Under the pieces are notes generated by a model, which searched no databases, was not told where the DNA came from, and saw only the letters and a program-made list of their open reading frames with translations. From IMG/VR virus record IMGVR_UViG_3300013902_000006: DNA of 64,000 nucleotides; one strand, written 5' to 3'. The translations under genes were made by a program, and so were the position numbers. The stretch is from a virus. Taxonomy: Duplodnaviria; Heunggongvirae; Uroviricota; Caudoviricetes. Positions 7,323 to 60,985 of this stretch are shown one piece after another. How positions within the stretch are numbered: position 1 is the first letter of the stretch; every line of letters begins with the position of its first letter.

Positions 7323-8234
7323 TTGTTGATGAGAAGACTGACAACTGAGGAATTTATAAATAAAGCCAAAGACATACATAATGATAAGTATAATTATACT
7401 AATACTGTGTATGTAAATGCTGTGACTAAAGTTTCTATTATATGCCCTACACACGGGGTTTTTTATCAGTTACCAAGCAGTCATTTACAAGGGCATGGAT
7501 GCCCATATTGCGGAGGTTCCAGTATTAAAACTACTGAACAATTTATACAAGAGGCAACGAATAAATGGGGTGACACTTACGATTATAGTAAAACAACATA
7601 TCGTAATGCTTTGACTAAAGTATGTATTATTTGTCCCGAGCATGGAGAATTTTGGCAACCTCCAAGCAGTCATTTACAAGGGCATGGATGCCCAAAGTGT
7701 CATTTTTTAAAGAACGGATTGAGACATCGTTCGAATACAGATGAATTTATTATAAAAGCCAAGAAGGTACACGGGAATAAGTATGATTATTCTAAAGTAA
7801 ACTATGTAAAGGTGAAGGAAAAAGTATGTATTATTTGTCCTGTACATGGGGAATTTTATCAGACACCTTGTCATCATCTTATTGGTAATGGTTGTCCAAA
7901 GTGTAATTATAGTAAAATGGAAAGTATAGTTGAAAATGCATTACTCTTTAATAATGTGCAGTTTGAATCTCAAAAGAAATTCAAATGGTTGGGAAAACAG
8001 AGTTTGGATTTTTATTTACCAAAATATAATATTGCAATAGAATGTCAAGGTGAACAACATTATAAACCTATAAAATATATCGGTGGCGATAATAAATTAA
8101 GTGTGATACAGGAAAGAGATAAAAGAAAATTAAAATTATGCAATCAAAACGATATTGATATCTTTTATATTAAATATACAGACGACTGTAATGAGGCAAT
8201 TAATAGAATATTAGAAAATATTGATACATTATAA
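7323..8234 (+). CDS. Homing-endonuclease-like protein: three tandem ~65-aa Cys/His repeats plus a C-terminal DUF559/Vsr-like PD-(D/E)xK domain
   Basis: The repeat KYDYSK..Y....KV.IICP.HG.F.Q.PSSHLQGHGCP.C occurs three times. A DNA-level repeat ccaagcagtcatttacaagggcatggatgccca occurs twice. The C-terminus LDFYLPKYNIAIECQGEQHY matches the DUF559/Vsr endonuclease motif (DF..., IEvDG..H). Confidence 0.5.
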   Translation: MLMRRLTTEEFINKAKDIHNDKYNYTNTVYVNAVTKVSIICPTHGVFYQLPSSHLQGHGCPYCGGSSIKTTEQFIQEATNKWGDTYDYSKTTYRNALTKVCIICPEHGEFWQPPSSHLQGHGCPKCHFLKNGLRHRSNTDEFIIKAKKVHGNKYDYSKVNYVKVKEKVCIICPVHGEFYQTPCHHLIGNGCPKCNYSKMESIVENALLFNNVQFESQKKFKWLGKQSLDFYLPKYNIAIECQGEQHYKPIKYIGGDNKLSVIQERDKRKLKLCNQNDIDIFYIKYTDDCNEAINRILENIDTL

Positions 8235-8236
8235 GT

Positions 8237-11200
8237 ATGAACAACGATTTGAGAACATACAGGATAAGAACAAAGGTCGGTGAGGATAAACCTACTGTGT
8301 TAAAAGTACCTTTAAAACAGACATATGATACTTTTGAGATACTTTCGTTAAAATTAGACCAAAGTAACTCTTATAAGTATTATACATCTGATTACGGTGT
8401 CATTGTCGGTCGTGTCCTTGCTAATGGAGGTGTAGGTATTCCGAACGCAAAGGTATCAATATTCATCGAGAGTGACGAGACAACCGCTGATATCAAAAAA
8501 TATATTTTATATCATTATTCATCAGTACAATCTACTGATAATGATGGTGTAAGATATAATTTATTGCCAGACGAAATAGATGAAGCCTGTCATCAGAATG
8601 TTGGTACATTCCCTAACAAGAGATTAGTCCTTGATAACAAGGATGTAATGGAAATCTTCGATAAATATTGGAAGTATACCACAGTTACAAATGAGGCTGG
8701 TGATTATATGTTGTTCGGCATTCCCACAGGCTCTCAACAATTGCATGTAGATATTGACTTGAGTGATATTGGTATATGGTCACAAAGACCAAGAGACCTT
8801 ATATATAAGGGATTTAATATCAACCAGTTTGATAGTCCGAACAAATTCAAGACAGACACCAATTTAAATTCGCTGTCTCAGATTTATTCACAGGATAGAG
8901 GGTTATATGTGTATCCTTATTGGGGAGAGACAACCGAGAACGGTGATACCATTGGTATTACCCGTTGTGATATACAAATTGATTATAAATTTGAACCTAC
9001 CTGTATCTTTATGGGTTCTATCGTAACTGATAAAGGTAATAACGCAATAGGTAAGAATTGTACTGGCACTGATTTAGTGGGAAAGATGTCTGACTTGTCA
9101 ACTGGTGAGGGTTCTATTGAAATGATAAGGAAGACCCTCGACAATAAAGTCGAGCAAGTGCAGATAAAAGGTAATCGTGTAATCGATGGTGATGGAGTAT
9201 GGTGTTACCAGATACCGATGAATCTCGATTATGTGATGACCGATGAGTTTGGTAATTTAGTACCAAGTGATAATCCTGATAGGGGTATACCTACTCGTAC
9301 AAGGGTGCGTTTCAGAATTTCATTGGATGAGCAACCTAACGATGGCTCTGCGAGAAAACGTTGCAAATATCTTGTTCCTAATAACCCTCATATCAACGAC
9401 GATGGGTTTAAAGAGAATCTTGACGCTGACTATGAATTTGGTTCGGCAACAAGAGAGGAGAGTTATTGTGATATGTTTTGGAATAAAGTATATACAGTTA
9501 AAAACTATATTCCAAGACTACAAAAAAATAGTAAGGTAACAAACCGTAAACATACAGGTATAAAGTTAATAAACCATTACGGCGATAATAACCCTATGCC
9601 TTATAATGGCTTGAGCATTAAATTAACCTTCACATTCAGATTGATTTGTGTGTTAACCAAGGCGTTTATTACCTTAATCGAATTTTTGAATATCGTTATC
9701 AGTTTATTGGGTACACTACCTTGTTGGATTGGTAGTTTGAAACTGCCTCTCATCGGTCGCCCTTTTAAATTCTTATTGAAATTAATACCGAGCTGTATTA
9801 AGCTATCGTCGGAATTTTGCGATGATGGAATAAATCCTAATGTCTATTATCCAGGATGCACAGGCTGTGTATGGAATAAAAAAACAAGAAAAGATTGCCA
9901 AGATTATCAATCAAAGCAGCCAAAGGAAGAACAATTGAGATGCCTTAATTCAACCGCACAGCTATATACTTGTGTCGAGAATGAGCTGGCACAAAGCAAT
10001 GATGCGACATCGTTCAATTTTTACAATGATTGGATTAATGGTTCGCTTTATGCACCTCTGTGGTATCGTAAGATTACACCTAAAAAGTCATTCTTATTCG
10101 GTTTGTTTAAACGTAAGGCAAAGGATGAGTGGTGTTCTGCCGATAGGGAGTTCGGAAGCTTCAGATTAATGCAAGCATGTGCTGTTGCACGTCCTGCGTC
10201 AAAAATGACATATGCCAATTTCGATGGTAAAGCAACGACTATGAGAATCGTCGATGGGAACCAATGTGGTAATAAGTGCCACGAGACAGTAAAGAATCAA
10301 GATGTTACCAATGGTGTAATATCCCCTAAGTTGACAATGTTAGGACAAACTGTTTATTATTATCGTGCCGTTGAATATGATCCAACAGCAACCCAAGAGA
10401 GCAACACTGATGTCAAAGGTGCCATTAAGACGTTATTTGCGACTGATATTGTATTATTGGGCAGTTTGAACAATTGTGATTCACAAGGAATACCACAATT
10501 CTTCAAAGAATTGGATTCAAGCACCTATAACTTACCAACTGATATTCTTTTTACTGATAATGAAATCGTTAACAGTTTCGATGACAATGGAAATCTTGTC
10601 GATGTAAAATATACTTCAAACACTGAAATGACAGGATGTGACTGGGGCAATAAGAATGAGTTCGGTAAAGATGACGGAGGCTTATTTTATGGAATCGGTT
10701 GCTCGACTATTGAGATGCAAACCAAGTCTTGCGTTAATTTAAGCCGTATCTGCGAGTTTGGTGTCTCTCTCGATGAAAGTAAATATGTACCTAACTTGAA
10801 GAATCTTAGTGGCGATGAAAACGCTTACGATTTGTTAATTGCCGATGGTTTTGTGTCTCACGATGAACTATATAATTTGGATGGCCGTTCTATGTTTGCA
10901 ACAATGAATGGCAACAGACTTAAGACTAAACTTAACACAACTAATGGTCTGAGAGAATATGATTTCAGATATTTGTATCCCGAGAGTTTCGATGGCTCAC
11001 TTGAAAAGATAATGCGTGACAAAACAGGACGGTATGGAAACGATGTAAATTACAAGAACAACTATAACCTTGAATCTGCCAGTCGTGATTATTATATATT
11101 CAGAATGGGTAACAATCCTTATTATTATGACAAGGAGTATCGTTTCCCTCGTTATGAAAATTCATTCTATTTTTATTTCGGACTAAAAAACGGAAAGACC

Positions 11201-14200
11201 GCAATTGAGAAATTCAACAGTCAGTTCTTTAGTGAGTGCGAGACTGTTAATGGGCAGGAAGCATCTATTGGCATAAAGGTAAACCCTAACTCCTGGTGCT
11301 CGAATGACGATGAGAAGAATAGGGATGGTTATGTCGCTTTGGATGTAAGTGGAATCGCCACGCCTTATGACATTATCATAAATTCAACAACGAATTTGTC
11401 TTATTCTGTCTCTGCTAATGACATAACATCAGATAAGATAATAATCAAGGGTGACAAGGCTTCTGCTGAAGAGATAAAGAAACTAACCGATAAAGGTTAT
11501 GTCGTGTTTGATGATATAAAGAATCTCGAAAACAGTGAATATCAATTGACAATTACTGACGCAGATGGTGAGATTACGACATCTACATTTAGGATGATTG
11601 CTTCTTATCTAACATATAAGACTTATGTTGATAAATTCAGACAGCCTAATAATGTCTTACAGTCGGAATACGCTAATATGGCGGCTATTGCTAACGACAA
11701 GAAAGGTTTGGCGAAAGATTTTGCCCAAGTTATCGAAGGCAGTGTGGATAGTCGTGAGATAGGCGGTGTAATAGTCGTATATGATGTATATTTCAATAAT
11801 GATATATTGAAGGATTACAAAGTAGAGATTAAACCTTTGGCTTCTGATTTTACGAATGATGGAAGTTACACGCCTGTCGTTTACAGTAGTAATGGTACTG
11901 TCTCTGGTAATGGTTTCTTGGGCAAAGTCGGTGATTATTTAGTATTTGGTCTCCCTAAGGGCGATGTCAGATATTCTGTAACCGTGACACAACTATGTAA
12001 TGGTATCGACAGCAAGAATAGTGTCGAGAAAACATTATTGGTTGAACAGCCGACCCCTTATAAATTGTATATAAATGATGTCGATTATGACGTAATAAAG
12101 GACGGTTTCGATTGTGGGTGGACTATTAGCGGTAAGACAGATAATATCAAGTTAAAACGAGGTAATTCTGTAAAGGGATGGTTGACTAACTTAGACAACG
12201 TTGATGATTTCATAGTGGACGACAATGGTCTCTTTAAATGGGAGAACAACGATACATATAAGTTGGAATACTATATCGATGATATGGACGATTATAGACT
12301 TAATCCCGACAAATATGCCGATAACATTGAAGAAATGAAGGAAGCACGTCGTCAATTTATCAAGTCGTTTAAAGAAACCTTTTATCTAAGTTGTCCTTCC
12401 GATTCATTGTCGTTAAACGTTTCAGTAAAGACTGATGACTATCCTTATTCGACGGCGATAATATATCGTCCAGAAATGGTATCAGAAGAAGAGGAATATA
12501 ATACGTTTGACGGTTGTGATAGTCGATTATTAACGACGGACAATCAGATTGATGATGTGAAAATACCAACGTTAACCAACTTTGATAACACACGATATGG
12601 AGGTGGTGATAAACTGACTGATGCGAAGATTAAGGACGCTGTATTCGCAAGGGATATAAACAGTAGTTGCAATAAGGAAGCAATTTATAAGCATCCTTAT
12701 TTTGTTGCGGCGGTCAATTCAAAAGGAAAAACCCTTCCGATGACGAATGTCGGTGTAAGTAAAGAGGACAATTCATATAAATTGAATGGAAATATTGCAG
12801 GATATTTTGGTTTCCATATAATTGATAAGATGTTGGTTAATAACATTATCAGTTGGGCATACATTACAGATATACCGTATTTTAAACCTTCATGGCAAGG
12901 TTTTAATGGCAAGAGTGTTGTTGCAAAAGAAGGTCTATTTGCAGGTATCTTGTATAACGGCTCACCTACGTCTGTGGATGTGAATGGCAATACGTTGTTC
13001 GAGTCACAGACATTGGCAGGTGTCACGTTTAATATAACGACAGTCTCTGATGGAACGTCAATGGCGACTAAACGTGTTATCACAGGACCAAATTTATTAA
13101 AGACTTATAAAGGCTATAAGGTCGATGATAAGACCGATGCCTATGTTACCTTACCTCCTGTATCGACAAGAATGAACATCGAGGACAGTAACGGTTGTCA
13201 AATTGATGAGACAATTTTCGGTGGAATGAGAATAACCGCAGGAGGAAGTTCGGTTAATAATCTTATCACTGGTGAAAGGATACTGAAGATAAATTTATCG
13301 AATGCTGACAGTTCGGGCGATACATATTACTATATATATTCAACCGAAGGAGGATTGAACTATCCTATAAACTCAATTGATGGAAATAACTTCATCACAA
13401 TGTATGATGACAGTGAATGGAAAGACGACAATAACGCATATCGTTTGTTTAACTATAAGACTACCAAGACAGTTTTACAGAATCTTGTCGACGAAGGTGT
13501 GAAATCGACGGTTCCGAATACCGAAGATGCATCGCAGACGACAGAATCGCATGGTTATGGGACAACGGGTAGTTTTACCAATATAGGAAAAGGTAAATCT
13601 TATTATGTCGTTGCTGTGACAGAAAATAACTGTAGGGCAATTTCACCAGTGTTTGACTTTGTAAACTTGGAAGGTGTCGTAGAAGTATCGAAGATATATT
13701 CAAAGATAGAGGATGGTACTGAGGAAATTGAGACTGAAGTTCCTGTGGTAGATGAAGAAGGTAAACCAGTACTTAACGAGGACGGCACACAGAAGACTGA
13801 AAAAGTAAAGTCTACTGTTACCAAATACAAAGATATTGAGGATAATATGATTGGCTTCTATATAGATGGACTCAATGTAGATTCAAATAACCCATATTAT
13901 TTCAATAAGTATCGTTATTCCTTGGAGGCAACTTGTGAAATAGATAGCCTTCATAAGGTTACGGCAAGTGGTGATTTGAGTGGAGGTACAAATAGTCCAA
14001 TATATGCGATTACTGACAGTAGTACTTTTGACTTGCTTAATGAGTATACATCTTTACCCCTTAAACTTGGTAATAAATTAATAAAAAAGAAAACAACCTT
14101 CACTGCGGTCGATTATACGAATTTGACTCACATATTCTCAGCAGGAAAAATAGTGAAGAAAGACCGATACCGTATATTATTGTCATTGAACGATCAAGAA

Positions 14201-36242: not shown

Positions 36243-37430
36243 ATGGATAATGTAATGGATAAGATAAAAGCCTACCTTTCGCAAAATAAGAAAATGGGTT
36301 TCGCCTTAAGGGATTGGCTTATAAGGAATGGATATAACTACACATTGAAGGAGGCGTTGATATGTATTTATAATGCAGCAGACGGAAAATCAAGTGTAAT
36401 GAATGACATTATAGAGCATTTGACAGAAAAAAGGAAAATTTATGGTAGGACACAGGTATATGCCGATAATAACACCCCTTTGATCGGTTTACGTAGAAAC
36501 GAGCAAGGTGAAGTTGAGTTATATGGTTATAGACCCAATATGCCCTTAAATCCTAAGGGACAACATATGTCAAGGAACAATAAGATATTCCGTAAATCAG
36601 ATGATCAAGTCAGCAAGACATATCAGAATTCAGAAGAAAAAATGTATGAGTTGGGACGACAAGTAAGAGATATGTTTCCTGATTGTAGTAATCACGACAT
36701 CACTTTCATAATGCAAGCGATAAAGAAATATGCTGAAAGTCATAAGATTCATACTGATAAGGTATTGAATATGATGAGAAAGGGAAGATTGGAATACAAT
36801 GAACCTTTAAATAGATTAGTTCCTCACGTGAGAGAAGGTAGACAAGGAAGAACCATTATGATAGACGAGGCCGTCATGATGGAAATCGCAGACGATGCGA
36901 ATATGACGGAATACAAGTTTAACTCAAACATTAAGCATTTCTTGCACGACTTATTGGTAAATCCATCTGGTGCGAAAATGCCTTTTATTTTTAAGATAAA
37001 TGGCGTCAATCGTAATAGGATGATATATTTCTTAAAGAAATTTGGCTTACTTAAGAAAATCGAAAGGATTTCTGACAAGGATAACGAAGGGAAACCTAAG
37101 AAAGCCACGATGATGGTAAAATATCAAGTTCCAAAAAAAGATTTCGATAGGAAATTAAAGAAATTATTTATACGTCTATTCGAGGACAACTGTAGTGAGG
37201 TTAATAATATCACAGAGGATGGAGAAGGTGCAACCACTTGTGATGCTTCATCGGGACAATTTTCGCAGCCATTGTTCCCATTACAGAGAGGTAAAATGTA
37301 TCATATGGACGAAGATACCACTTGTGACAGCGTAGGTGATTATCAATACGATGTACCATTTGCGGGCGATGATGAGACTTTGAAACGAAATAATGGCGTT
37401 GGAGGTTCAAATTCAATAAATTTCGCATAA
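36243..37430 (+). CDS. Hypothetical protein
   Basis: 395-aa ORF whose stop lies inside a 62-bp tandem duplication. Confidence 0.45.
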   Translation: MDNVMDKIKAYLSQNKKMGFALRDWLIRNGYNYTLKEALICIYNAADGKSSVMNDIIEHLTEKRKIYGRTQVYADNNTPLIGLRRNEQGEVELYGYRPNMPLNPKGQHMSRNNKIFRKSDDQVSKTYQNSEEKMYELGRQVRDMFPDCSNHDITFIMQAIKKYAESHKIHTDKVLNMMRKGRLEYNEPLNRLVPHVREGRQGRTIMIDEAVMMEIADDANMTEYKFNSNIKHFLHDLLVNPSGAKMPFIFKINGVNRNRMIYFLKKFGLLKKIERISDKDNEGKPKKATMMVKYQVPKKDFDRKLKKLFIRLFEDNCSEVNNITEDGEGATTCDASSGQFSQPLFPLQRGKMYHMDEDTTCDSVGDYQYDVPFAGDDETLKRNNGVGGSNSINFA

Positions 37431-37544
37431 TAAAGTAACAATTAGGACTATTTATGTATATAGAAAATGATGATAGCCGTGATTTCGCATAATAAAGTAA
37501 CAATTAGGACTATTTATGTATATAGAAAATGATGATAGCCGTGA
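37421..37544 (+). repeat. Perfect tandem duplication, 2 x 62 bp
   Basis: tttcgcataataaagtaacaattaggactatttatgtatatagaaaatgatgatagccgtga repeated head-to-tail. Copy 1 carries the stop of the upstream gene. Copy 2 carries the ATG of a 55-aa ORF (37516..37683). Confidence 0.85.
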
Positions 37545-37749
37545 TAAAGTAATCGAAAGAATGTTGCAAATCTCAGAGGAAAGGGAAGACCTATCTGAAC
37601 AAGGAAAACTTGACAAGGAGAAAGAGAGAGAACTAATCCTAAGACAATTTTATCAAGGACTAAAGTTATGTACAAGAGGGTAAATAACTGTTAAATAAAA
37701 TTTTAAGAAAATCTACGAAAAATTATTCGTTTTTATGACGAATTTTTTG

Positions 37750-37757
37750 TATTTTTG
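37750..37757 (+). promoter_or_regulatory. -7 box TATTTTTG(CA); candidate promoter of the tRNA island transcript
   Basis: TAnnTTTG match followed by a GGCAGCCGTACTGCC hairpin, with no ORF downstream before the tRNAs. Confidence 0.35.
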
Positions 37758-37880
37758 CAAAGATAAATAAGTTAAAGAAATCGTTTAATAGGCAGCCGTA
37801 CTGCCGAATTTACGCTTGTGGACTGCCAACTATGGATGACCGTTGCTAAAGCAGCCTAAAAAGTAGTGATAGGATGAAAC

Positions 37881-37934
37881 AAGAAATAAAAACTAAGTAA
37901 AATCATAATTTTTCTTAGAATTTTATATACGGTA
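37881..37934 (+). repeat. 54-bp exact direct repeat, copy 1 (copy 2 at 40458..40511)
   Basis: aagaaataaaaactaagtaaaatcataatttttcttagaattttatatacggta is identical at both positions. The repeat pair brackets the tRNA island and two ORFs. Confidence 0.9.
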
Positions 37935-38016
37935 CTCAAGTGGTTTAAGAGGACGGTCTTGAAAATCGTTAGCACTGTGATGAATGGTGGCGTGAGTCCG
38001 AATCTCACCCCCTCCG
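37935..38016 (+). pseudogene. 5'-truncated tRNA-Ser(TGA)-like pseudo-tRNA
   Basis: D-arm CTC/AAGTGGTTTAA/GAG, anticodon arm ACGGT-CTTGAAA-ATCGT, a long variable arm and T-arm GTGAG-TCCGAAT-CTCAC parallel E. coli tRNA-Ser. The 3' acceptor strand CCCCTCC has no complementary 5' strand. The body starts exactly at the end of repeat copy 1. Confidence 0.4.
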
Positions 38017-38025
38017 CAACCGAAT

Positions 38026-38113
38026 GGAAGACTAACCCTGATGGTGATGGGGGCATCCTGCTAAGATGTTTCGTTCGAGAAATTCGAATGTGGTTCGATT
38101 CCACAGTCTTCCT
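38026..38113 (+). tRNA. tRNA-Ser (anticodon GCT), type II
   Basis: Manual cloverleaf: acceptor GGAAGAC/GTCTTCC, D-stem CCC/GGG, anticodon stem GCATC/GATGT, loop CTGCTAA, variable arm TTCGA-GAAAT-TCGAA, T-arm TGTGG-TTCGATT-CCACA. No encoded CCA. Confidence 0.7.
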
Positions 38114-38398
38114 CAATTCAAAAGGTAGTATAGTTCAGTGGCAAAACACCCAAATCACAGGGATAAGAGATATGTCCAAATTGCGATTCACAATTAGATA
38201 CATATAAGTCTAAAAATAAAAATAGCAACAGAAATTATTATCGATTTCATAAATGATAATTTTTGACCTACGTCAAATAATCTATATAAAATGTGTGCGA
38301 ACACAATATTTTTAATATAATGTTTATATTTATTATTGAATAGAGAAAACCATATGATATGACTAAGCGAGATAATAAATAATATACCTATTAATTAA

Positions 38399-38548
38399 AT
38401 GAAAAAGATTATGAAAAAGACGTTATCATTAGTAAAACGAGCTGTGAAGTGGTATTTCAAAAAGACTATGCCATATAATCAATATGTATGGTGTCCAAGT
38501 GGAATGATACCTTATAATTACAACAGAAACGTAAGTAAGGAGAAATAA
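38399..38548 (+). CDS. Possible small basic protein (49 aa)
   Basis: ORF encoding MKKIMKKTLSLVKRAVKWYFKK... inside the tRNA island. Below the ORF-track length cutoff. Confidence 0.2.
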   Translation: MKKIMKKTLSLVKRAVKWYFKKTMPYNQYVWCPSGMIPYNYNRNVSKEK

Positions 38549-38781
38549 CTATGGTGAGTTTTATTAATTGTTTGAAAACCATCTTAAAAGATGGTCTTGA
38601 GATGATGGGACAAAGTGTCCTGAGTGGTAATTGGCAATAATAAAATTGTTTCAATTCCACTTTTTATAAAAAAAAAAAAATGTAATTTTTATCATTTGTT
38701 GAAAAATAAGTAGTATATTTGTAATGTCGAAAGATAGAGATGTCTAATCGTATGTTCTTTGAAATGATACAGATATAATTT

Positions 38782-38851
38782 GCGGATTTGGTGTAAAGGT
38801 TGCACATCGTCTGTCCAAGACGAGGGAGCTGTTCGATTCAGCATTCCTGCT
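38782..38851 (+). tRNA. Degenerate tRNA-Gly(TCC)-like sequence
   Basis: D-stem GTGT/GCAC, anticodon stem TCGTC/GACGA and loop TGTCCAA parallel T4 tRNA-Gly. It has G33, a 4-bp T-stem around TTCGATT, and an acceptor that pairs at only 4 of 7 positions. Confidence 0.25.
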
Positions 38852-38881
38852 CAATGCAATAGTGTAAGAAAGAGTTACTTC

Positions 38882-38954
38882 GTTTGATTCGCCCAGTTGG
38901 TAGGGCATTATTTTATGGTAATAACTGTCATCGGTTCGAGTCCGATATTAAACT
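38882..38954 (+). tRNA. tRNA with anticodon loop TTATGGT (apparent anticodon ATG, formally His)
   Basis: Acceptor GTTTGAT/ATTAAAC (one G-U), D-arm GCCC-AGTTGGTA-GGGC, anticodon stem TTATT/AATAA, T-arm ATCGG-TTCGAGT-CCGAT, 73 nt. A34 in the anticodon is unusual. Confidence 0.5.
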
Positions 38955-39088
38955 AATTTTTTTTTACTCTTTCTGATTTTCTTTGCAAACCTATAGTGTG
39001 ATAGTGGAAGTTCGGTTACTTCGAAAATGGAAATGAATGATTTATAATTGAAAAACACCGAACTTATTAAATCTTCACAATTTTATAT

Positions 39089-39161
39089 CGTGGCGTGGAG
39101 CAGTTGGTAGCTCAACAGACTCATAATCTGTAGGTCACTGGTTCGAGTCCAGTCGCCACCA
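39089..39161 (+). tRNA. tRNA-Met/Ile2 (anticodon CAT) with an unpaired C1-C72 and A11:U24
   Basis: Positions 2-7 GTGGCG pair with CGCCAC. D-arm GAGC-AGTTGGTA-GCTC, anticodon arm ACAGA-CTCATAA-TCTGT, T-arm ACTGG-TTCGAGT-CCAGT. No encoded CCA. Confidence 0.7.
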
Positions 39162-39278
39162 CATAGTCGTTGTTTCTCAATGTGTTATACAGAAAAACGC
39201 ACAGTCTTATAATGTCACAGGTTAGTTTTAATCGACTGTCTGTGACATTTTTATTATTATTTTATTTTTAAAATTAAA

Positions 39279-39608
39279 ATGGACAAATATGAAGACTTAA
39301 TTACACAAGTTAAAGTAAGAATGTTTAAAAGAGTTCCTTTCACCTTATATAATTATGTAAGCGAGGAAAGTGGTTATCTGAACTTTTTGAATAAAAAAGG
39401 TATTAGTAACGACATTGATGATTTGGAATGCCTACAGATTGAATTAACTGATGACGAGAAGAAAAACATAAAAAAAGGCGTTAATGGACGTTTTGACGAT
39501 TTCTCACGGTATATCGAAAAACATACTGATAATACAATAAATGTTTCCATTATGAAACAATATGGCTGTGTTTTCGTAGTAAAACCAAAGGGAACAATTT
39601 TAAATTAA
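39279..39608 (+). CDS. Hypothetical protein
   Basis: 109-aa ORF after the tRNAs. Confidence 0.4.
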   Translation: MDKYEDLITQVKVRMFKRVPFTLYNYVSEESGYLNFLNKKGISNDIDDLECLQIELTDDEKKNIKKGVNGRFDDFSRYIEKHTDNTINVSIMKQYGCVFVVKPKGTILN

Positions 39609-39656
39609 TAATTTTTAACTATTGTTTTTATCATAATATCATATAAAGTAGTAATT

Positions 39657-40421
39657 TTGCATTATAAAATACATATTATGAAAGAAAAAGTAGACATATC
39701 ACAGCAAGTAGGTATTACAGAGAGTGGGGAAATTGCTTTCAATCTTGAAGCTTTCGATAATTTGCGTAATGCCAATATTATTATAACGAAGAGACTAACT
39801 GACAAACTGATTGAAAAGTTAGTAGAGAATAAAGACAAGATAATTCTTCATCTTACGTGTACGGGAATGGGTGGAACGAAAATTGAACCATTCGTTCCGA
39901 CTGCGGATGCCACATATACAAAATTCAAGAAATTAATTAATGATGGATTTCCAATAAGTCACGTTGTATTACGTATAGATCCGATTGTTCCAACTGAGAA
40001 AGGTGTTAATACAGCAATTAAGGTATTGGAAACTTTTGCCCCAATGAAAATCGAACGTGTGAGGATATCAATACTCGATATGTATAAGCATGTTAAAGAA
40101 AGATTTAATGAAAAAGGAATTCCATTGCCTTTTGAGGATTTCCATTCGCCATTATCACTGAGGAAATCAATCTACGATATTTTTTATGATTATTCAGATA
40201 AATATGAGTTTTATTTGGAAGTATGTGGTGAACCTGGAATTGAGAGCGTCCCTTGTCTTTCGCAAAGGGATATAGATATTCTTGGACTAAGTGATAAAAT
40301 AAAATTAGTAGGTAGCGCAAAACAAAGGAAATCATGCGGATGCCCGGCAAATAAACATGAGATATTGAAAGATAAACCTCATCAGTGTAATAATGGTTGC
40401 CTTTATTGTTTTTGGAAATAA
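39657..40421 (+). CDS. Hypothetical protein with a C-terminal Cys cluster (CGCP...C..GC.YC)
   Basis: 254-aa ORF preceded by a TAATTTTG -7 box at 39645..39652. The conserved-looking Cys cluster suggests metal or Fe-S binding. Confidence 0.45.
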   Translation: MHYKIHIMKEKVDISQQVGITESGEIAFNLEAFDNLRNANIIITKRLTDKLIEKLVENKDKIILHLTCTGMGGTKIEPFVPTADATYTKFKKLINDGFPISHVVLRIDPIVPTEKGVNTAIKVLETFAPMKIERVRISILDMYKHVKERFNEKGIPLPFEDFHSPLSLRKSIYDIFYDYSDKYEFYLEVCGEPGIESVPCLSQRDIDILGLSDKIKLVGSAKQRKSCGCPANKHEILKDKPHQCNNGCLYCFWK

Positions 40422-40457
40422 TTTCTATGCTTCATTGTTTCTCCATGAAAATGTATT

Positions 40458-40511
40458 CCAGACGGAGAAGAAATAAAAACTAAGTAAAATCATAATTTTT
40501 CTTAGAATTTT
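40458..40511 (+). repeat. 54-bp exact direct repeat, copy 2
   Basis: Identical to 37881..37934 and lies 78 nt upstream of the FtsH-like gene. Confidence 0.9.
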
Positions 40512-40588
40512 ATATACGGTAAGAAGTACAAATAGTAAAGTATTAAAGAAGTAGAATAAAGTATAACAATTTTAATATTTTTAATAAC

Positions 40589-42697
40589 GTGGTGAATATT
40601 GATATTGATGATATACGTAAGAAGAATAAAATAATAGATAATGCGATTATCGCATTAAAAAAGAAATATATCGGTGTTGATGAACAAATCGACGAGATTA
40701 TGAATAATGTAAGGACGTGGTACTGTTATCCACAATTACAGTCTCGCCCTTGTGTCGTGAATTTATGGGGAATGAGTGGATGTTCTAAGACAGATTCTGT
40801 TCGTACAATTGCTAAGTTACTTAATCTTGAGGAAGATTTGATTTATTTTAATTTCGCAGACATTAATGAAAAAAATGCGTGGGAAATTGAGACCGACATT
40901 GAAGAAAACATAGGTAACAACAAGAGCAATCGCATTATTGTGTATGACGAATTTCAATATGCTGCAACTCTTGACAAGAAAAAGGAGGAGAAGGACAACA
41001 AGGGTGCTTTGAAACCATTTTGGGAATTGTTGGATACTGGTATTCTTCATAAGAAGACTGAGGTAAGCACTTTATTCGATGTTTATAAGATATATCTTGT
41101 ATTGAAGCGAATAATGGACAGTAATTATCCTATTAAGTTAGTCGACGGAAAGTGGCTTAACAGTAAGGGTTATATTGATAACACCAATGCCTATGAGAAA
41201 CGTGCAATAATGGATGTATTTGCACAGAATGATCAGCCTTGTTTTAAAAAGTATGATATGAATGGAGGAGATAGCATATCTTCAGAAGAAATATATTATA
41301 GTAATGACAAAACTGATTATGTTGAATTTAACCCTTGGTTGATAGATCGGGTAATTAGCATATACAATAATATTAATGGAAGTAAATATAAGTCTGACAA
41401 CGTTGAGATAAAGGAGAAGTTATATTCAATGTCCATTGATGAAATGATAAAGTTCTTTTTTGACCTTTATCATTCCGCATGTAAAGGTTATGACCTTAAT
41501 TTCAAGAATAGTCTTGTTTTTGTTATAGGTAATCTTGATGAGGCTTATGACGTAAGTTTCAATGTTAATCCCGATATGTCGCCTGATCAATTCCATAAGA
41601 TGACGAAGAAAATCAGTGTCGTTGATATTAAGGAAGCATTGAAGGAGAGATTCCGTAATGAACAAATCGCAAGGCTTGGCAACATTCATGTAATTTATCC
41701 GTCGTTCTCAAGCAAGACATTCAAGGGAATAATTCAAATGCAATTGGATAATTATTCCAAGGAGGTCAAAGAGAAAATCGGATGTGATATACGGTATGAT
41801 TCCTCAATTAACAAGATTATATATAAGGAAGGTGTATTCCCGACACATGGTACAAGACCTGTATTCTCAAGCATTCAAGAAATCGTCAAGTCAAGACTGC
41901 CTGAAGTAATAAAGCATCTTACCGAGATGAAACTGATACAAAGTTTAGACAGTTTGGAGTATTCGTATTCAAATGGCTATGTTAAGATGAAAGCGTATAA
42001 TATTGATGGTAATCTATTGTCTTCAATTAAGACAAAACTCAAATTGAGAATTGATAATCTTAGGAAATCAAGTCTAGATGATAAACAGGCATTATGTGCC
42101 GTACATGAAAGCGGGCATTTTGTCGTGTATACAAAAGTATACGGGAATGTACCTGCCAAGTTAATCTCAATGGCAACTGAGAGTGGAACAGGTGGTTTCT
42201 TGCAGCAAGACGATGATGAAGACGATAAGGCGATGAAGACATATGATTATTATTTTAATAACATCAAGATAGCTCTTGGAGGGTACGTCGCTGAGGAGGT
42301 AGTCTTTGGAAACAGTAAACGTACAAGTGGTGCGATATCAGATTTGAGGAAAGCGACTGCTATTGCGAGTAGAATGATGTTGGAAATGGGAATGGACAAG
42401 CCTATTGTTAAGAGTAACATGTTAGACCTTGAATCGCAGTATTTAATTGTCGACGATAAAAGGAAAGATATAAACGACAAGGTATCAGCAATAATTGGCA
42501 AGGCGTTGGATGAAGTTAAGGAATTGCTTAATGATGCTGATTATAGGGTAATGTTAAAAAAATCATCTGATTACTTGGCTACTCATTCTGAAATGCCGAG
42601 AAACAAGATGAAAGAATTTTTTTCGGTAATACCAAATTGTAAGAGAACTGTCATTAATGACAGATTTTACAGGAATGCCTTGAAAAATTTTAAATAA
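40589..42697 (+). CDS. P-loop ATPase fused to an FtsH-type (M41) zinc metallopeptidase domain; soluble, with no TM segments
   Basis: N-terminal deviant Walker A GMSGCSKT and Walker B IIVYDEF. The C-terminus aligns with the E. coli FtsH protease domain: HESGHF versus HEAGHA; KLISMATESGTGGFL versus KVTIIPRGRALGVTFF; LGGYVAEEVVFG..TSGAISDLRKATAIASRMMLEMGM versus [37 protein letters not shown]. Confidence 0.65.
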   Translation: MVNIDIDDIRKKNKIIDNAIIALKKKYIGVDEQIDEIMNNVRTWYCYPQLQSRPCVVNLWGMSGCSKTDSVRTIAKLLNLEEDLIYFNFADINEKNAWEIETDIEENIGNNKSNRIIVYDEFQYAATLDKKKEEKDNKGALKPFWELLDTGILHKKTEVSTLFDVYKIYLVLKRIMDSNYPIKLVDGKWLNSKGYIDNTNAYEKRAIMDVFAQNDQPCFKKYDMNGGDSISSEEIYYSNDKTDYVEFNPWLIDRVISIYNNINGSKYKSDNVEIKEKLYSMSIDEMIKFFFDLYHSACKGYDLNFKNSLVFVIGNLDEAYDVSFNVNPDMSPDQFHKMTKKISVVDIKEALKERFRNEQIARLGNIHVIYPSFSSKTFKGIIQMQLDNYSKEVKEKIGCDIRYDSSINKIIYKEGVFPTHGTRPVFSSIQEIVKSRLPEVIKHLTEMKLIQSLDSLEYSYSNGYVKMKAYNIDGNLLSSIKTKLKLRIDNLRKSSLDDKQALCAVHESGHFVVYTKVYGNVPAKLISMATESGTGGFLQQDDDEDDKAMKTYDYYFNNIKIALGGYVAEEVVFGNSKRTSGAISDLRKATAIASRMMLEMGMDKPIVKSNMLDLESQYLIVDDKRKDINDKVSAIIGKALDEVKELLNDADYRVMLKKSSDYLATHSEMPRNKMKEFFSVIPNCKRTVINDRFYRNALKNFK

Positions 42698-59012: not shown

Positions 59013-59523
59013 TTGTTTTACAATGTGACGAAAGAAAAATTTATTGAAAAAAGCAACAAGATACATAATAATAAATATGACTATTCAAAAGTAGACTATA
59101 TAAATGCCAATACAAAAGTCTGTATTATTTGTCCGGAGCATGGTGAATTTTGGATGACTCCTACCGCACATATGTATCAAAGACAAAATTGTCCTGATTG
59201 TGCTAAAAAAGAAACCGCCATAAAACGCACTAAGAATACTGATTGGTTTATACGAACAAGCATTTAAAGTACATGGTAATAAGTACGATTACTCGAAAGC
59301 TGTATATCAGAATACAGAAGCCAAGGTTTGCATCATTTGTCCTGAGCACGGCGAATTTTGGCAAACCCCTCATAATCATCTATGTACTACGAAACCACAA
59401 GGTTGTCCTAAATGTGGAAAGGAACAGTATATTATTAAAAATACTAAAATTGAAAATGATTTTATAAATGAATGCATTAAAAGGATAAACATCATGTTAA
59501 TTTTAATTAAACCATTACATTAG
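59013..59523 (+). pseudogene. Frameshifted, truncated paralog of the 7323..8234 repeat endonuclease-like gene
   Basis: Repeat 1 (KYDYSKVDYINANTKVCIICPEHGEFWMTP..CPDC) is in frame 2 and ends at 59267. Repeat 2 (KVHGNKYDYSKAVYQNTEAKVCIICPEHGEFWQTP..GCPKCG) continues in frame 0 up to the TAG at 59521. A single extra C in tttata-c-gaacaagca near 59256 restores FIEQAFKVHGNKYDY. No C-terminal nuclease domain. Confidence 0.6.
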
Positions 59524-60427: not shown

Positions 60428-60652
60428 ATGCAAGAAATCTATATTCTTATAAAAAGTGAAGGAATCTATGATTCACAGACGAGTTTTCCTGTTGCTGCAT
60501 TTATGAACCGAGAAGCTGCCGAGAAGGAGTGCAAACGTTTGAATGACGAAATGGATGATTTGCAAAGTCTATTTCCGATGCAAGCTGGGGCGCGTTCGTC
60601 ACAATGTTGGAATACAAAGCTAAGTGGTATGGAAAGACCCTATCCAAGATAG
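60428..60652 (+). CDS. Small hypothetical ORF whose 3' end runs into the TnpB remnant
   Basis: 74-aa ORF with a canonical promoter. Possibly a chimeric reading frame created by the IS insertion or deletion. Confidence 0.3.
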   Translation: MQEIYILIKSEGIYDSQTSFPVAAFMNREAAEKECKRLNDEMDDLQSLFPMQAGARSSQCWNTKLSGMERPYPR

Positions 60653-60915
60653 GAAGGTTCTATCCATCCTCAAAAACTTGCCATTATTGCGGCTATGTCA
60701 AGGAAGACTTGACTTTGTCTGACCGTTACTACACTTGCCCTAATTGTGGCAAGCTGATAGACAGAGACTTGAATGCAGCAAAGAACATCCTTGAGGAAGG
60801 AATAAGAAACATATCGGCAGGAACTGTCGATTACACCGATGGAGGGGGCGTAAGACTTGCTCGCAAGCATTCCCCGATGAAGTCGGAATCCCACAAGTCT
60901 TTAGCTTGTGGGTAG
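60559..60915 (+). mobile_element. tnpB: IS200/IS605-family TnpB (OrfB) C-terminal fragment with the element right-end hairpin; decayed IS
   Basis: In-frame translation ISDASWGAFVTMLEYKAKWYGKTLSKIGRFYPSSKTCHYCG...YTCPNCGKLIDRDLNAAKNILEEG matches the TnpB RuvC-II/Zn-finger/RuvC-III end (DASWGEF..LEYKA.W.G, SSKTCS.CG, DRDVNAAINI). The hairpin CCCACAAG-TCTTTAG-CTTGTGGG at 60890..60912 overlaps the stop, as expected for IS605 right-end/omega-RNA scaffolds. About 280 N-terminal aa are missing. Confidence 0.6.
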
Positions 60916-60985
60916 TTCAAGAAGGCTTGCCATCATACTATGTAACGAATGAGAGCATTCCTTTGTATAATTAAAGATTAATTTT

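Follow-up and report, generated by a model that had tools for sequence, protein, structure and literature searches.

The 54-bp direct repeat beside a phage tRNA cluster as the right end of an IS607-family transposon and its gene-less derivative

Introduction

Transposons of the IS607 family are described as having neither terminal inverted repeats nor target-site duplications, as ending in GG and as inserting after G-rich motifs, with TAMs that include GAGGG. For CboIStron, a TAM of TGGG and an omega-RNA scaffold ending in UCGG are described. Gene-less derivatives of the IS200/IS605 type (PATE/MITE-like) in Geobacillus stearothermophilus encode omega RNAs that are used in trans (PMC10055086). 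In phage T4, as cited in PMC13565253, SegB is a free-standing, protein-guided homing endonuclease in the tRNA gene region, and its activity has been demonstrated.

Here, we analysed a 64,000-nt stretch of phage DNA (hereafter, the window), in which a first-pass annotation had reported an exact 54-bp direct repeat around a block of tRNAs and genes and had interpreted it as either a duplicated promoter or processing signal or the scar of a recombination event. Taken together, our results make it very probable that the 54-mer is the terminus of the right end of an IS607-family transposon, with copy 1 as the tail of a gene-less miniature element (MITE) and copy 2 as a relic, in a phage of approximately 360 kb that this element has colonised. 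On this reading, the repeat belongs to an already known kind of mobile element and is not a promoter.

The locus resembles the IS607 family in the lack of terminal inverted repeats and of target duplication, in its GG end and in its insertion 3' of a G-rich motif. Like IS607, IS1535 and the IS607 part of CboIStron, the parent transposon encodes a serine-recombinase TnpA with an N-terminal MerR-type HTH together with TnpB, and its GGG/ACGG pair parallels the TGGG/UCGG of CboIStron. Different from the described members, the window copy is gene-less, GGG is followed by T in all targets observed, the omega RNA matches no Rfam model and the host replicon is a phage genome of this size. By analogy with PATEs, the MITE can be described as a short non-autonomous element that keeps both ends and a guide-RNA scaffold and is presumably served in trans by the TnpA and TnpB of an autonomous copy in its genome; unlike PATEs, its parent is of the IS607 type (serine recombinase, double-stranded DNA intermediate) rather than a Y1/HUH 'peel and paste' element, and it has no defining subterminal palindromes. 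Like SegB, the locus is a selfish nuclease system in a phage tRNA cluster that could bias the inheritance of the region during co-infection, but cleavage here would be guided by RNA through TnpB, which we only infer.

Results and Discussion

The 54-mer within a 252-nt gene-less element

The 54-mer occurs exactly twice in the window with zero mismatches (0 expected, 100 shuffles). Copy 1 lies at 37881..37934 on the + strand, as first annotated, while copy 2 is located at 40468-40521 instead of 40458-40511, a shift of 10 nt, and is separated from the start of the FtsH-like gene (40589) by 67 nt, not 78 nt. The repeat unit is not confined to 54 nt, as copy 1 sits in a 252-nt unit (37682..37933, + strand; AAATAACTG...TATATACGGT), a complete non-autonomous IS607-family MITE with full copies in sister contigs and with ends matching those of a full-length element; its boundaries are uncertain by the 3-nt GGT common to target and element. 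Copy 1 is made up of 3 nt from the 3' strand of helix 2, the two terminal stem-loops (H5 and H6), the ATACGG(T) terminus and a single tRNA nucleotide (A9). The final one or two bases of the 54-mer (T, A) reflect identity of target site or flank and lie outside the transposon, which ends at ...ATACGG(T), and the last bases (GGT, then A) mimic tRNA positions 6-9 by chance.

Three full copies of the MITE in sister contigs are 99.6-100% identical to the window copy; one sister contig holds three full 252-nt copies plus the copy-2 relic, and the three copies on NODE_7 of assembly ERZ26858499 are identical. The left-end part (37682..37785, + strand) matches the left end of the full-length elements at loci L014 and L118-L121 and of L015, an independent deletion derivative, and contains a hairpin, a T-run and a TAnnTTTG box at 37750-37757. 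The right-end part (37786..37933, + strand) consists of the last 22 tnpB codons and the omega-RNA scaffold and is 97% identical to L002 and L014, the same value being obtained when 37786-37934 is compared with the 3' end of the tnpB ORF and its downstream sequence in these two loci. Identity to the two ends of the full-length element amounts to 83% for the left part and 97% for the right. The tnpB remnant was detected by tblastn at 37782-37846 and is frameshifted by a 1-nt deletion. The MITE would have originated by an internal deletion of about 2.05 kb that joined approximately 104 nt of the left end to the last 22 tnpB codons and the omega-RNA scaffold. As expected of a MITE or PATE, it is free of ORFs, retains both parental ends, occurs in several near-identical copies and shares a genome with its parent.

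The parent transposon and its family

The parent element is 2.3 kb long and encodes a serine-recombinase TnpA and a TnpB. At L014, the order is left end, small ORF, TnpA (MerR HTH plus Resolvase), TnpB and right end, the last terminating in ...TATATACGGT. TnpA of L014 contains a MerR/HTH_17 domain (residues 4-51) and a Resolvase domain (residues 66-204), and its 396-aa TnpB matches HTH_OrfB_IS605, OrfB_IS605 and the Cas12f1-like TNB domain. The same TnpA gene adjoins that of the 396-aa TnpB (P0149) in L118-L121. Furthermore, the parent's TnpA and 396-aa TnpB are both carried by JGI contig Ga0116653_1000004 (242,497 nt), which stems from another assembly and the other end of which carries ORF395, ORF55 and the MITE.

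The shared sequence halts at ...ACGG(T) before at least eight unrelated right flanks, and among 65 distinct homologues the right-end terminus is TACGGT in 41 and TACGAT in 13. Comparison of the left end (AAATAACTGTTAAAT...) with the reverse complement of the right end (ACCGTATATAAAATTC...) gave no inverted match. As in IS607, tnpB lies upstream of the right end in the parent, of which the window retains only the last 22 codons, and the GG terminus and the insertion 3' of a G-rich motif were both found. In IMG/VR, 79 TnpB relatives were detected, often several on one contig. Megablast of 36500-42000 against GenBank phages returned no match, nor did exact-pattern scans for the left end in viral contigs, for the ORF55-MITE junction in metagenome contigs or for the omega core in genome contigs, and no copy of the element from a bacterial host was identified in the searches made.

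Target sites and interrupted tRNA genes

Directly 5' of the MITE, at the end of ORF55, lies the motif GGGT (37678..37681, + strand), which is common to the full copies; the ORF55 stop codon TAA (37681-37683) consists of the target T and the first two As of the element. The motif stands ahead of all full copies, and also of most family members with a locatable left end. The element inserts at GGG^T, with neither inverted terminal repeats nor target duplication. The empty tRNA-Gly site of L111 is exact (GAGGGT/TCGACT) and, compared with the occupied site of L003 (GAGGGT-252 nt-TCGACT), reveals no target duplication, only the shared GGT being ambiguous. In this AT-rich DNA, tRNA genes contain GGGT at about 4.6 times the density found elsewhere, and the presence of two MITE copies inside tRNA genes fits this density.

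MITE copies in near-identical contigs interrupt two tRNA genes, tRNA-Ser(TGA) between bases 8 and 9 and tRNA-Gly(TCC) within the T-loop, the junctions in L003 being GGAGGGGT/MITE/ACTCAAG... and GAGGGT/MITE/TCGACT.... In-silico excision of the MITE from L003 restores both tRNAs, which ARAGORN otherwise misses; joining the 5' 8 nt from L003 to the 3' part yields a 92-nt tRNA-Ser(TGA) that ARAGORN calls. L114 and L111 carry an uninterrupted, diverged tRNA-Ser(TGA) allele at the same position. In the window, only the 3' 84 nt of this gene, from position 9 to the end, are present (37934..38017, + strand), and its first 8 nt (GGAGGGGT) are absent. There is no ARAGORN call, and Rfam gives a partial tRNA match (37931-38010, model positions 6-65, 31.7 bits), in agreement with the earlier observation of a tRNA-Ser(TGA) body lacking its 5' acceptor strand directly after copy 1. 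The accompanying proposal that the repeat had overwritten the first 9 nt of the tRNA does not hold: the 252-nt MITE inserted after base 8, the displaced part is 8 nt by origin, and these 8 nt are intact upstream of the MITE in near-identical contigs.

An exact-pattern scan of viral contigs for the predicted empty tRNA-Ser site found none. In metagenome contigs, a 24-nt empty-site pattern matched only in unrelated high-GC tRNA-Ser genes, and by comparison with these the rebuilt 5' end is a canonical tRNA-Ser start. A strict specificity of the wider family for tRNA genes was considered and rejected, since a T-arm motif is found in only 4 of 67 distinct right flanks. In-silico excision at 12 other family loci restored no split tRNA.

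A structured RNA at the right end

Across the 65 distinct homologues, the right-end scaffold contains six covarying helices. In the covariation test, 95.7% of cells were paired, compared to 37-64% when the partners were slid, compensatory changes were found in 19 of 30 pairs, and the observed values were reached in 0 of 500 shuffles. Helix 5, which lies within the 54-mer, is 97.6% paired, with five of its seven pairs covarying. Folding of the single 54-mer sequence gives stems H5 and H6, with an energy that is not significant (z = -1.5). Because the conserved segment lies 3' of the stop codon in L013, it is conserved as nucleic acid and not as protein. As expected of an omega RNA (reRNA), this is a conserved structured RNA that overlaps the 3' end of tnpB and stops at the right end. 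The MITE scaffold carries a 1-nt deletion through which one pair of helix 3 is lost, and its omega RNA may therefore be impaired. A search of Rfam, including RAGATH-18 (the model reported for IS607 TnpB), gave no match for the window element at E<=10 or for the full-length element of L029 at E<=1.

The left junction of the window

The window is 99.99% identical to ERZ26858499 NODE_7 up to the MITE and 99.97% identical after it, and 19,639 nt that lie between MITE copies C and B of NODE_7 are missing from the window. The first 8 nt of tRNA-Ser are missing from the window because the sequence to the left of the MITE there is the flank of another MITE copy, that after ORF55. The ORF55 copy and the tRNA-Ser copy would thus have merged into one, with the intervening 19.6 kb skipped. 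The earlier idea of a recombination scar stands in part: the truncation of the tRNA is accounted for by a mobile element together with recombination among copies of it, and the overwriting and the installation of a tRNA cassette fall away.

The join of ORF55, MITE and tRNA-Ser may be either a real deletion or an assembly join. The latter is considered because this junction turned up in no further contig. If so, the assembly would have bridged a 252-nt repeat wrongly at the window's left junction, and the actual genome would retain both the 5' end of the tRNA and the 19.6 kb; this possibility, which is a substantial one although we lean against it, concerns the junction only and not the identity of the repeat. 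Consistent with a false join, copies A, B and C are identical within one contig, six contigs end inside the element, the join itself crosses this 252-nt multi-copy repeat, at which many contigs break off, and the flanks are joined differently between assemblies (C to S1, C to S2, and full-length element to S1), with the C-to-B join of the window shown in no other contig. On the other hand, the right end on the 242-kb JGI contig is a hybrid that changes from the full-length type to the MITE type over about 65 nt, for which real recombination is the easier explanation. Moreover, the C-to-A join recurs among the places grouped with L021 (up to 12, not individually shown), and at least five independent assemblies contain the two 54-mer copies together with the flanks to their right. 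Since copies A, B and C are identical within the contig, there is no SNP marker by which a crossover could be placed.

Mobilisation in trans and possible guide function

TnpA from a full-length copy in the same genome would mobilise the MITEs in trans; this activity is inferred, because the window contains neither tnpA nor a full-length tnpB. The circle junction between right and left ends would then read ...ATACGG/TAAATAAC, and precise excision would leave GGAGGGGTACTCAAG and GAGGGTTCGACT. In addition, MITE transcripts could provide omega RNAs with the flanking tRNA sequence as guides, and TnpB would then cut MITE-free alleles (TAM GGG), driving an RNA-guided homing of the MITEs. A more far-reaching version, which we regard as unlikely and offer as speculation, is that the MITEs form a portable guide library whose omega RNAs direct the phage TnpB to cut the intact tRNA-Ser and tRNA-Gly alleles of co-infecting MITE-free relatives, resulting in homing and co-conversion of the tRNA region, with 18-20-kb deletion variants arising by recombination between copies. 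Each MITE would possibly be transcribed from the TAnnTTTG box in its left end, and most of the tRNA array would be missing from the deletion variants, together with Ro60/TROVE, DHFR and Clp. If true, this would make the system an RNA-guided counterpart of T4 SegB.

In a family of large gut-type phages, an IS607-type element appears to be active together with its gene-less derivatives. Repeats of this sort lead to breaks or false joins when giant phages are assembled from metagenomes, and tRNA counts become unreliable, as two tRNAs were missed until the element was removed in silico. The MITE copies are plausible drivers of 18-20-kb gains and losses between strains, and, if the guide-RNA scaffold is functional, the system would be a natural setting in which to test for RNA-guided homing among competing phages.

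The tRNA/gene block and copy 2

As reported initially, tRNAs and two ORFs (39279-39608 and 39657/39678-40421, the latter DUF1848) lie between the 54-mer copies. Besides the tRNA-Ser(TGA) remnant, the array (38026..39162) comprises tRNA-Ser(GCT) at 38026-38114, a Gly(TCC)-like sequence that was not called (38784-38855), a 'His(ATG)' tRNA (38882-38954) and tRNA-Met (39089-39162), followed by ORF109 (39279-39608) and the DUF1848 gene (39678-40421; Pfam PF08902), all on the + strand. ORF109 and the DUF1848 gene occur in the same order in relatives L001, L108, L111 and L114, all of which lack the repeats, and are ancestral phage genes rather than cargo of the repeat. L114 has the same tRNAs, ORF109, DUF1848 gene and FtsH-like gene in the same order with neither 54-mer copy, which contradicts the suggestion that the repeats installed the tRNA cassette. 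The island of tRNAs and genes is ancestral.

A 2.5-kb block of tRNAs and two ORFs flanked by direct repeats might be taken for an acquired island bounded by attL/attR-like scars, but the block is in place with neither repeat in L114 (95-97% nucleotide identity), L111, L108 and L001, and the 252-nt unit of copy 1 occurs at two further sites, leaving this interpretation scarcely credible. It is likewise very unlikely that the 54-mer is a duplicated promoter or RNA-processing signal for the tRNA array and the FtsH-like operon. Both copies do lie upstream of transcription units on the + strand, and a weak sigma-70-type match (9/12; 37874-37903) overlaps the start of copy 1; however, this match uses flank bases outside the 54-mer and none was reported at copy 2, the scan finding nothing common to both copies and no sigma-70-type site wholly within the 54-mer. 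The 54-mer also lacks the TAnnTTTG box (Bacteroidota-type), its RNA stems covary, and it forms the end of transposon copies in unrelated surroundings; relatives keep the same gene order without it. Neither the short motif TTTTATATNCG nor the TAnnTTTG box is enriched in the window, and the motif TTTTATAT(A)CG noted earlier before tRNA-Met is present there, although such motifs as a class are not enriched (12 matches vs 13.9 expected).

The undamaged halves of the split tRNAs raise the question of an IStron-type, intron-like insert that is spliced from the tRNA precursor and leaves the tRNAs functional, and IS607-family IStrons with a 3' splice site at the right end do exist. Against this, neither the MITE nor the full-length element has a match to Intron_gpI, a ribozyme or any other Rfam model, and the left part, at 104 nt, seems too short to hold a group I core, making splicing highly improbable. 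Neither tRNA positions 8/9 nor the T-loop is known as an intron site in bacterial tRNAs.

With the 54-mer read as a transposon right end, copy 2 (40468..40521, + strand) is a 5'-truncated relic that keeps only stem-loops H5/H6 and the terminus. Alignment with L114, L111, L108 and L001 places it in a lineage-specific 167-nt spacer (40422..40588, + strand; 46 nt, 54-mer, 67 nt), where all relatives have a spacer of 20-30 nt (24 nt in a P0002-type relative). Among 122 fetched loci, none provides another source for its 46-nt and 67-nt flanks, and copy 2 is not accounted for by simple insertion. The neighbouring gene 3' of copy 2, which lies outside the element and encodes an FtsH-like AAA/M41 protease (40589..42697, + strand), starts with GTG in the window and with ATG in relatives.

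Identification of the 54-mer as an IS607-type right end

The window contains two exact copies of the 54-mer AAGAAATAAAAACTAAGTAAAATCATAATTTTTCTTAGAATTTTATATACGGTA, copy 1 at 37881-37934 and copy 2 at 40468-40521, against a chance expectation of 0. The first-pass annotation had reported the repeat and its first copy correctly; its position for copy 2 (40458..40511) was 10 nt too low, and the FtsH-like gene, said to lie 78 nt downstream, starts 67 nt after copy 2, at 40589. As it also described, copy 1 is directly followed by a tRNA-Ser(TGA) body without the 5' acceptor strand, which Rfam matched as a partial tRNA (37931-38010, model positions 6-65, 31.7 bits) and for which ARAGORN gave no call in the window. 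Likewise, tRNAs and two ORFs do lie between the copies, namely tRNA-Ser(GCT), a tRNA-Gly(TCC)-like sequence, an anticodon-ATG tRNA, tRNA-Met, ORF109 and the DUF1848 gene. The short motif noted before tRNA-Met has no statistical significance.

A scan of IMG/VR with the 54-mer gave one match, on contig IMGVR_UViG_3300013383_000042 (L002), where it comes after an ORF that terminates in ...CGEHHDRDLNAAMNILLEGERIIGSRTAEFTLVDYPTMDDRC, a TnpB C-terminus; window 37786-37934 shares 97% identity with the matching stretch. Further loci were found with a conserved 29-mer from the right-end region, and the complete element (~2.3 kb, locus L014) comprises a left end, a small ORF, TnpA (209 aa; MerR-type HTH and Resolvase), TnpB (396 aa; HTH_OrfB_IS605, OrfB_IS605 and Cas12f1-like TNB) and a right end that terminates in ...TATATACGGT, which is the IS607-family architecture. 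The 54-mer belongs to the right end of a transposon of this kind, and the autonomous parent is on the same phage contig as a MITE copy. In the window, where neither tnpA nor full-length tnpB is present, an internal-deletion derivative of 252 nt (37682-37933) joins a ~104-nt left end to the last 22 tnpB codons and the downstream right end. In another locus (L015), a deletion derivative of independent origin has its internal breakpoint elsewhere. What the giant phage carries in the window is an IS607-family MITE or a relic of such a right end, a kind already known.

Near a full-length IS607 element, contig L118 carries an IS200/IS605-type pair at 11078-12873 (422-aa TnpB and 136-aa Y1 transposase), so that this genome hosts at least two transposon families.

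Insertion of the MITE into tRNA genes

Two sister contigs (L003 and L004), which match the window at 99.97% identity from 37678 on, each contain the 252-nt unit twice. Copy B has GGAGGGGT at its immediate left and ACTCAAGTGG... at its right, the two halves of tRNA-Ser(TGA), indicating that this tRNA was split between bases 8 and 9 and not, as had been proposed, overwritten at its 5' end. Copy A interrupts tRNA-Gly(TCC) in the T-loop, between GAGGGT and TCGACT. When the 252 nt were removed in silico, ARAGORN called a 92-nt tRNA-Ser(TGA) and a 72-nt tRNA-Gly(TCC), both otherwise missed, and the 5' 24 nt of the rebuilt tRNA-Ser occur unchanged in bona fide tRNA-Ser genes of other origin. A 362-kb contig (L111) has the tRNA-Gly site exactly empty between identical flanks, and both L111 and the related locus L114 have an uninterrupted tRNA-Ser(TGA) at the same position as a diverged allele. 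These comparisons establish the MITE insertion sites. ORF109 is identical in sequence across many contigs.

Several other tRNA differences were observed. In relative L001, the orthologue of the 'His(ATG)' gene at 38882-38954 is tRNA-Gln(TTG), anticodon position 34 having changed from T to A in the ATG form, which L003 and L114 also have. The tRNA-Gly(TCC)-like sequence at 38784-38855 was called by neither ARAGORN nor Rfam; its L001 counterpart is present twice and called tRNA-Gly. A tRNA-like 5' fragment lies at ~38125-38170. Compared with L114 2394-2871, window 38170-38262 lacks tRNA-Leu(TAG), tRNA-Tyr and tRNA-Arg(TCT), as does L003; in L114 and L111 these follow tRNA-Ser(GCT).

Element termini and target motif

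The common sequence ends at ...ACGG(T) ahead of at least eight unrelated right flanks, the terminal hexamer being TACGGT in 41 of 65 distinct homologues and TACGAT in 13. GGGT, the target motif, stands 5' of every full copy in the window lineage and, across the family, of most left ends whose position could be determined. The empty and filled tRNA-Gly sites differ by no duplication apart from a shared GGT, and the element ends have no terminal inverted repeats. These ends and this target agree with published IS607 rules: no TIR, no TSD, ends in GG, insertion after G-rich motifs, and TAMs including GAGGG (PMC13565253). For CboIStron, target and TAM are TGGG and the omega-RNA scaffold ends UCGG (bioRxiv 10.1101/2023.11.20.567912); the corresponding pair in the phage element is GGG/ACGG. 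In L111, GGGT occurs at 11.3 per kb in tRNA genes versus 2.5 per kb elsewhere, which provides a simple explanation for insertion into tRNA genes. Strict tRNA specificity was considered and rejected, the T-arm motif being found in 4 of 67 distinct flanks of the wider family.

The right end as a conserved structured RNA

TnpB relatives were retrieved from IMG/VR at 79 loci (65-100% identity). Many of the loci lie on contigs of 100-400 kb, and one contig often has several. An alignment of 65 distinct right-end regions supported six helices, with 95.7% of cells paired versus 37-64% when partners were slid, compensatory changes in 19 of 30 pairs, and none of 500 shuffles reaching the observed values. 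In locus L013 the conserved core lies 3' of the tnpB stop, indicating conservation as nucleic acid. The right end is structurally conserved as RNA. The 54-mer contributes the last 3 nt of helix 2, helix 5 (AUAAAA/UUUUAU; 97.6% paired, 5/7 pairs covarying), helix 6 (CUAAG/CUUAG) and the terminus, and its single-sequence fold gave the same two stems. In the MITE scaffold, a 1-nt deletion abolishes one helix 3 pair.

Other readings of the repeat are improbable. A promoter or processing signal, as earlier suggested, is highly improbable, since the 54-mer contains no shared motif and relatives without it keep the operon order. IStron-like splicing out of the element is harder still to credit, as there is no ribozyme signal; no Rfam model, RAGATH-18 and group I introns included, matches the element. 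Least probable are att-like borders of an acquired island, a reading contradicted by L114, where the whole block is present with neither copy.

Origin of copy 2

The spacer before the FtsH-like gene is 20-30 nt in relatives whose DUF1848 protein is 99, 89, 84 or 81% identical and in L001 (78% nt identity), and by gene calls the two genes overlap in L114. In the window lineage alone the spacer measures 167 nt (46 nt, the 54-mer and 67 nt), with the same sequence in five assemblies, which indicates that copy 2 is a derived relic of the right end, truncated at its 5' end. No fetched locus provided a source for the 46-nt and 67-nt flanks. Aberrant mobilisation carrying flanking DNA is one possibility, and insertion followed by deletion another. 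The FtsH-like gene starts GTG-GTG in the window and ATG-GTG in relatives L114, L001, L111 and L108, a change that coincides with the replaced upstream spacer.

The junction after ORF55

A third MITE, copy C, follows ORF55 on ERZ26858499 NODE_7, the same contig as L003. Identity between the window and NODE_7 is 99.99% before the element and 99.97% beyond it, and the 19,639 nt separating copies C and B are missing from the window. This segment contains genes for Ro60/TROVE, methyltransferases, DHFR and Clp protease, twelve called tRNAs in addition to the split Gly, and the 5' 8 nt of tRNA-Ser. That the ORF55-MITE-tRNA-Ser junction is an artefactual assembly join is somewhat unlikely, yet a serious possibility: six contigs end within the element, its flanks are connected differently in different assemblies, copies A, B and C have no distinguishing SNPs, and no second contig among the matches listed has the C-to-B join. 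Against this, a C-to-A join recurs among places grouped with locus L021, and on a 242,497-nt JGI contig (Ga0116653_1000004) a right end of full-length type 5' and MITE type 3', switching within ~65 nt, precedes the copy C right flank. The identity of the 54-mer is unaffected by this question.

The hybrid right end (L119 9127-9290; JGI 3300013947 Ga0116653_1000004) is followed by the genes that come after copy C in NODE_7, an arrangement suggesting that the genome is reshuffled by recombination between copies of the element. An exact 62-nt tandem duplication at 37420-37543 spans the ORF395 end and ORF55 start; it is missing from L020 and L022 (gap between the two ORFs of 23 nt versus 85 nt, by gene calls) and is thus polymorphic between strains.

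Possible mobilisation and further repeats

Once recognised as a transposon end, the repeat is ordinary; of interest are the tRNA-gene insertions, the possible repeat-mediated 19.6-kb loss and putative RNA-guided homing between phages. By analogy with the IS607/OMEGA literature, TnpA would move MITEs in trans, MITE transcripts would serve as omega RNAs with flanking tRNA sequence as guide, and TnpB would cut GGG-flanked empty alleles, favouring retention or homing.

A second, distinct 5'-truncated TnpB remnant lies at 60547-60921, its ~100 C-terminal residues matching Cas12f1-like TNB and ~50% identical to the first TnpB family. The final 78 nt of IMG/VR contig 3300013383_000042 (L015) match window bases 60844-60921 at 100% identity, so the remnant is likewise a repeated element where contigs break. 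In addition, a 130-nt unit occurs in five diverged copies (62-75% identity) at 7346-7868 and 59033-59370; the copies at 59013-59467 fall within short ORFs that have CxxC...CxxC motifs and may represent repeated zinc-finger modules.
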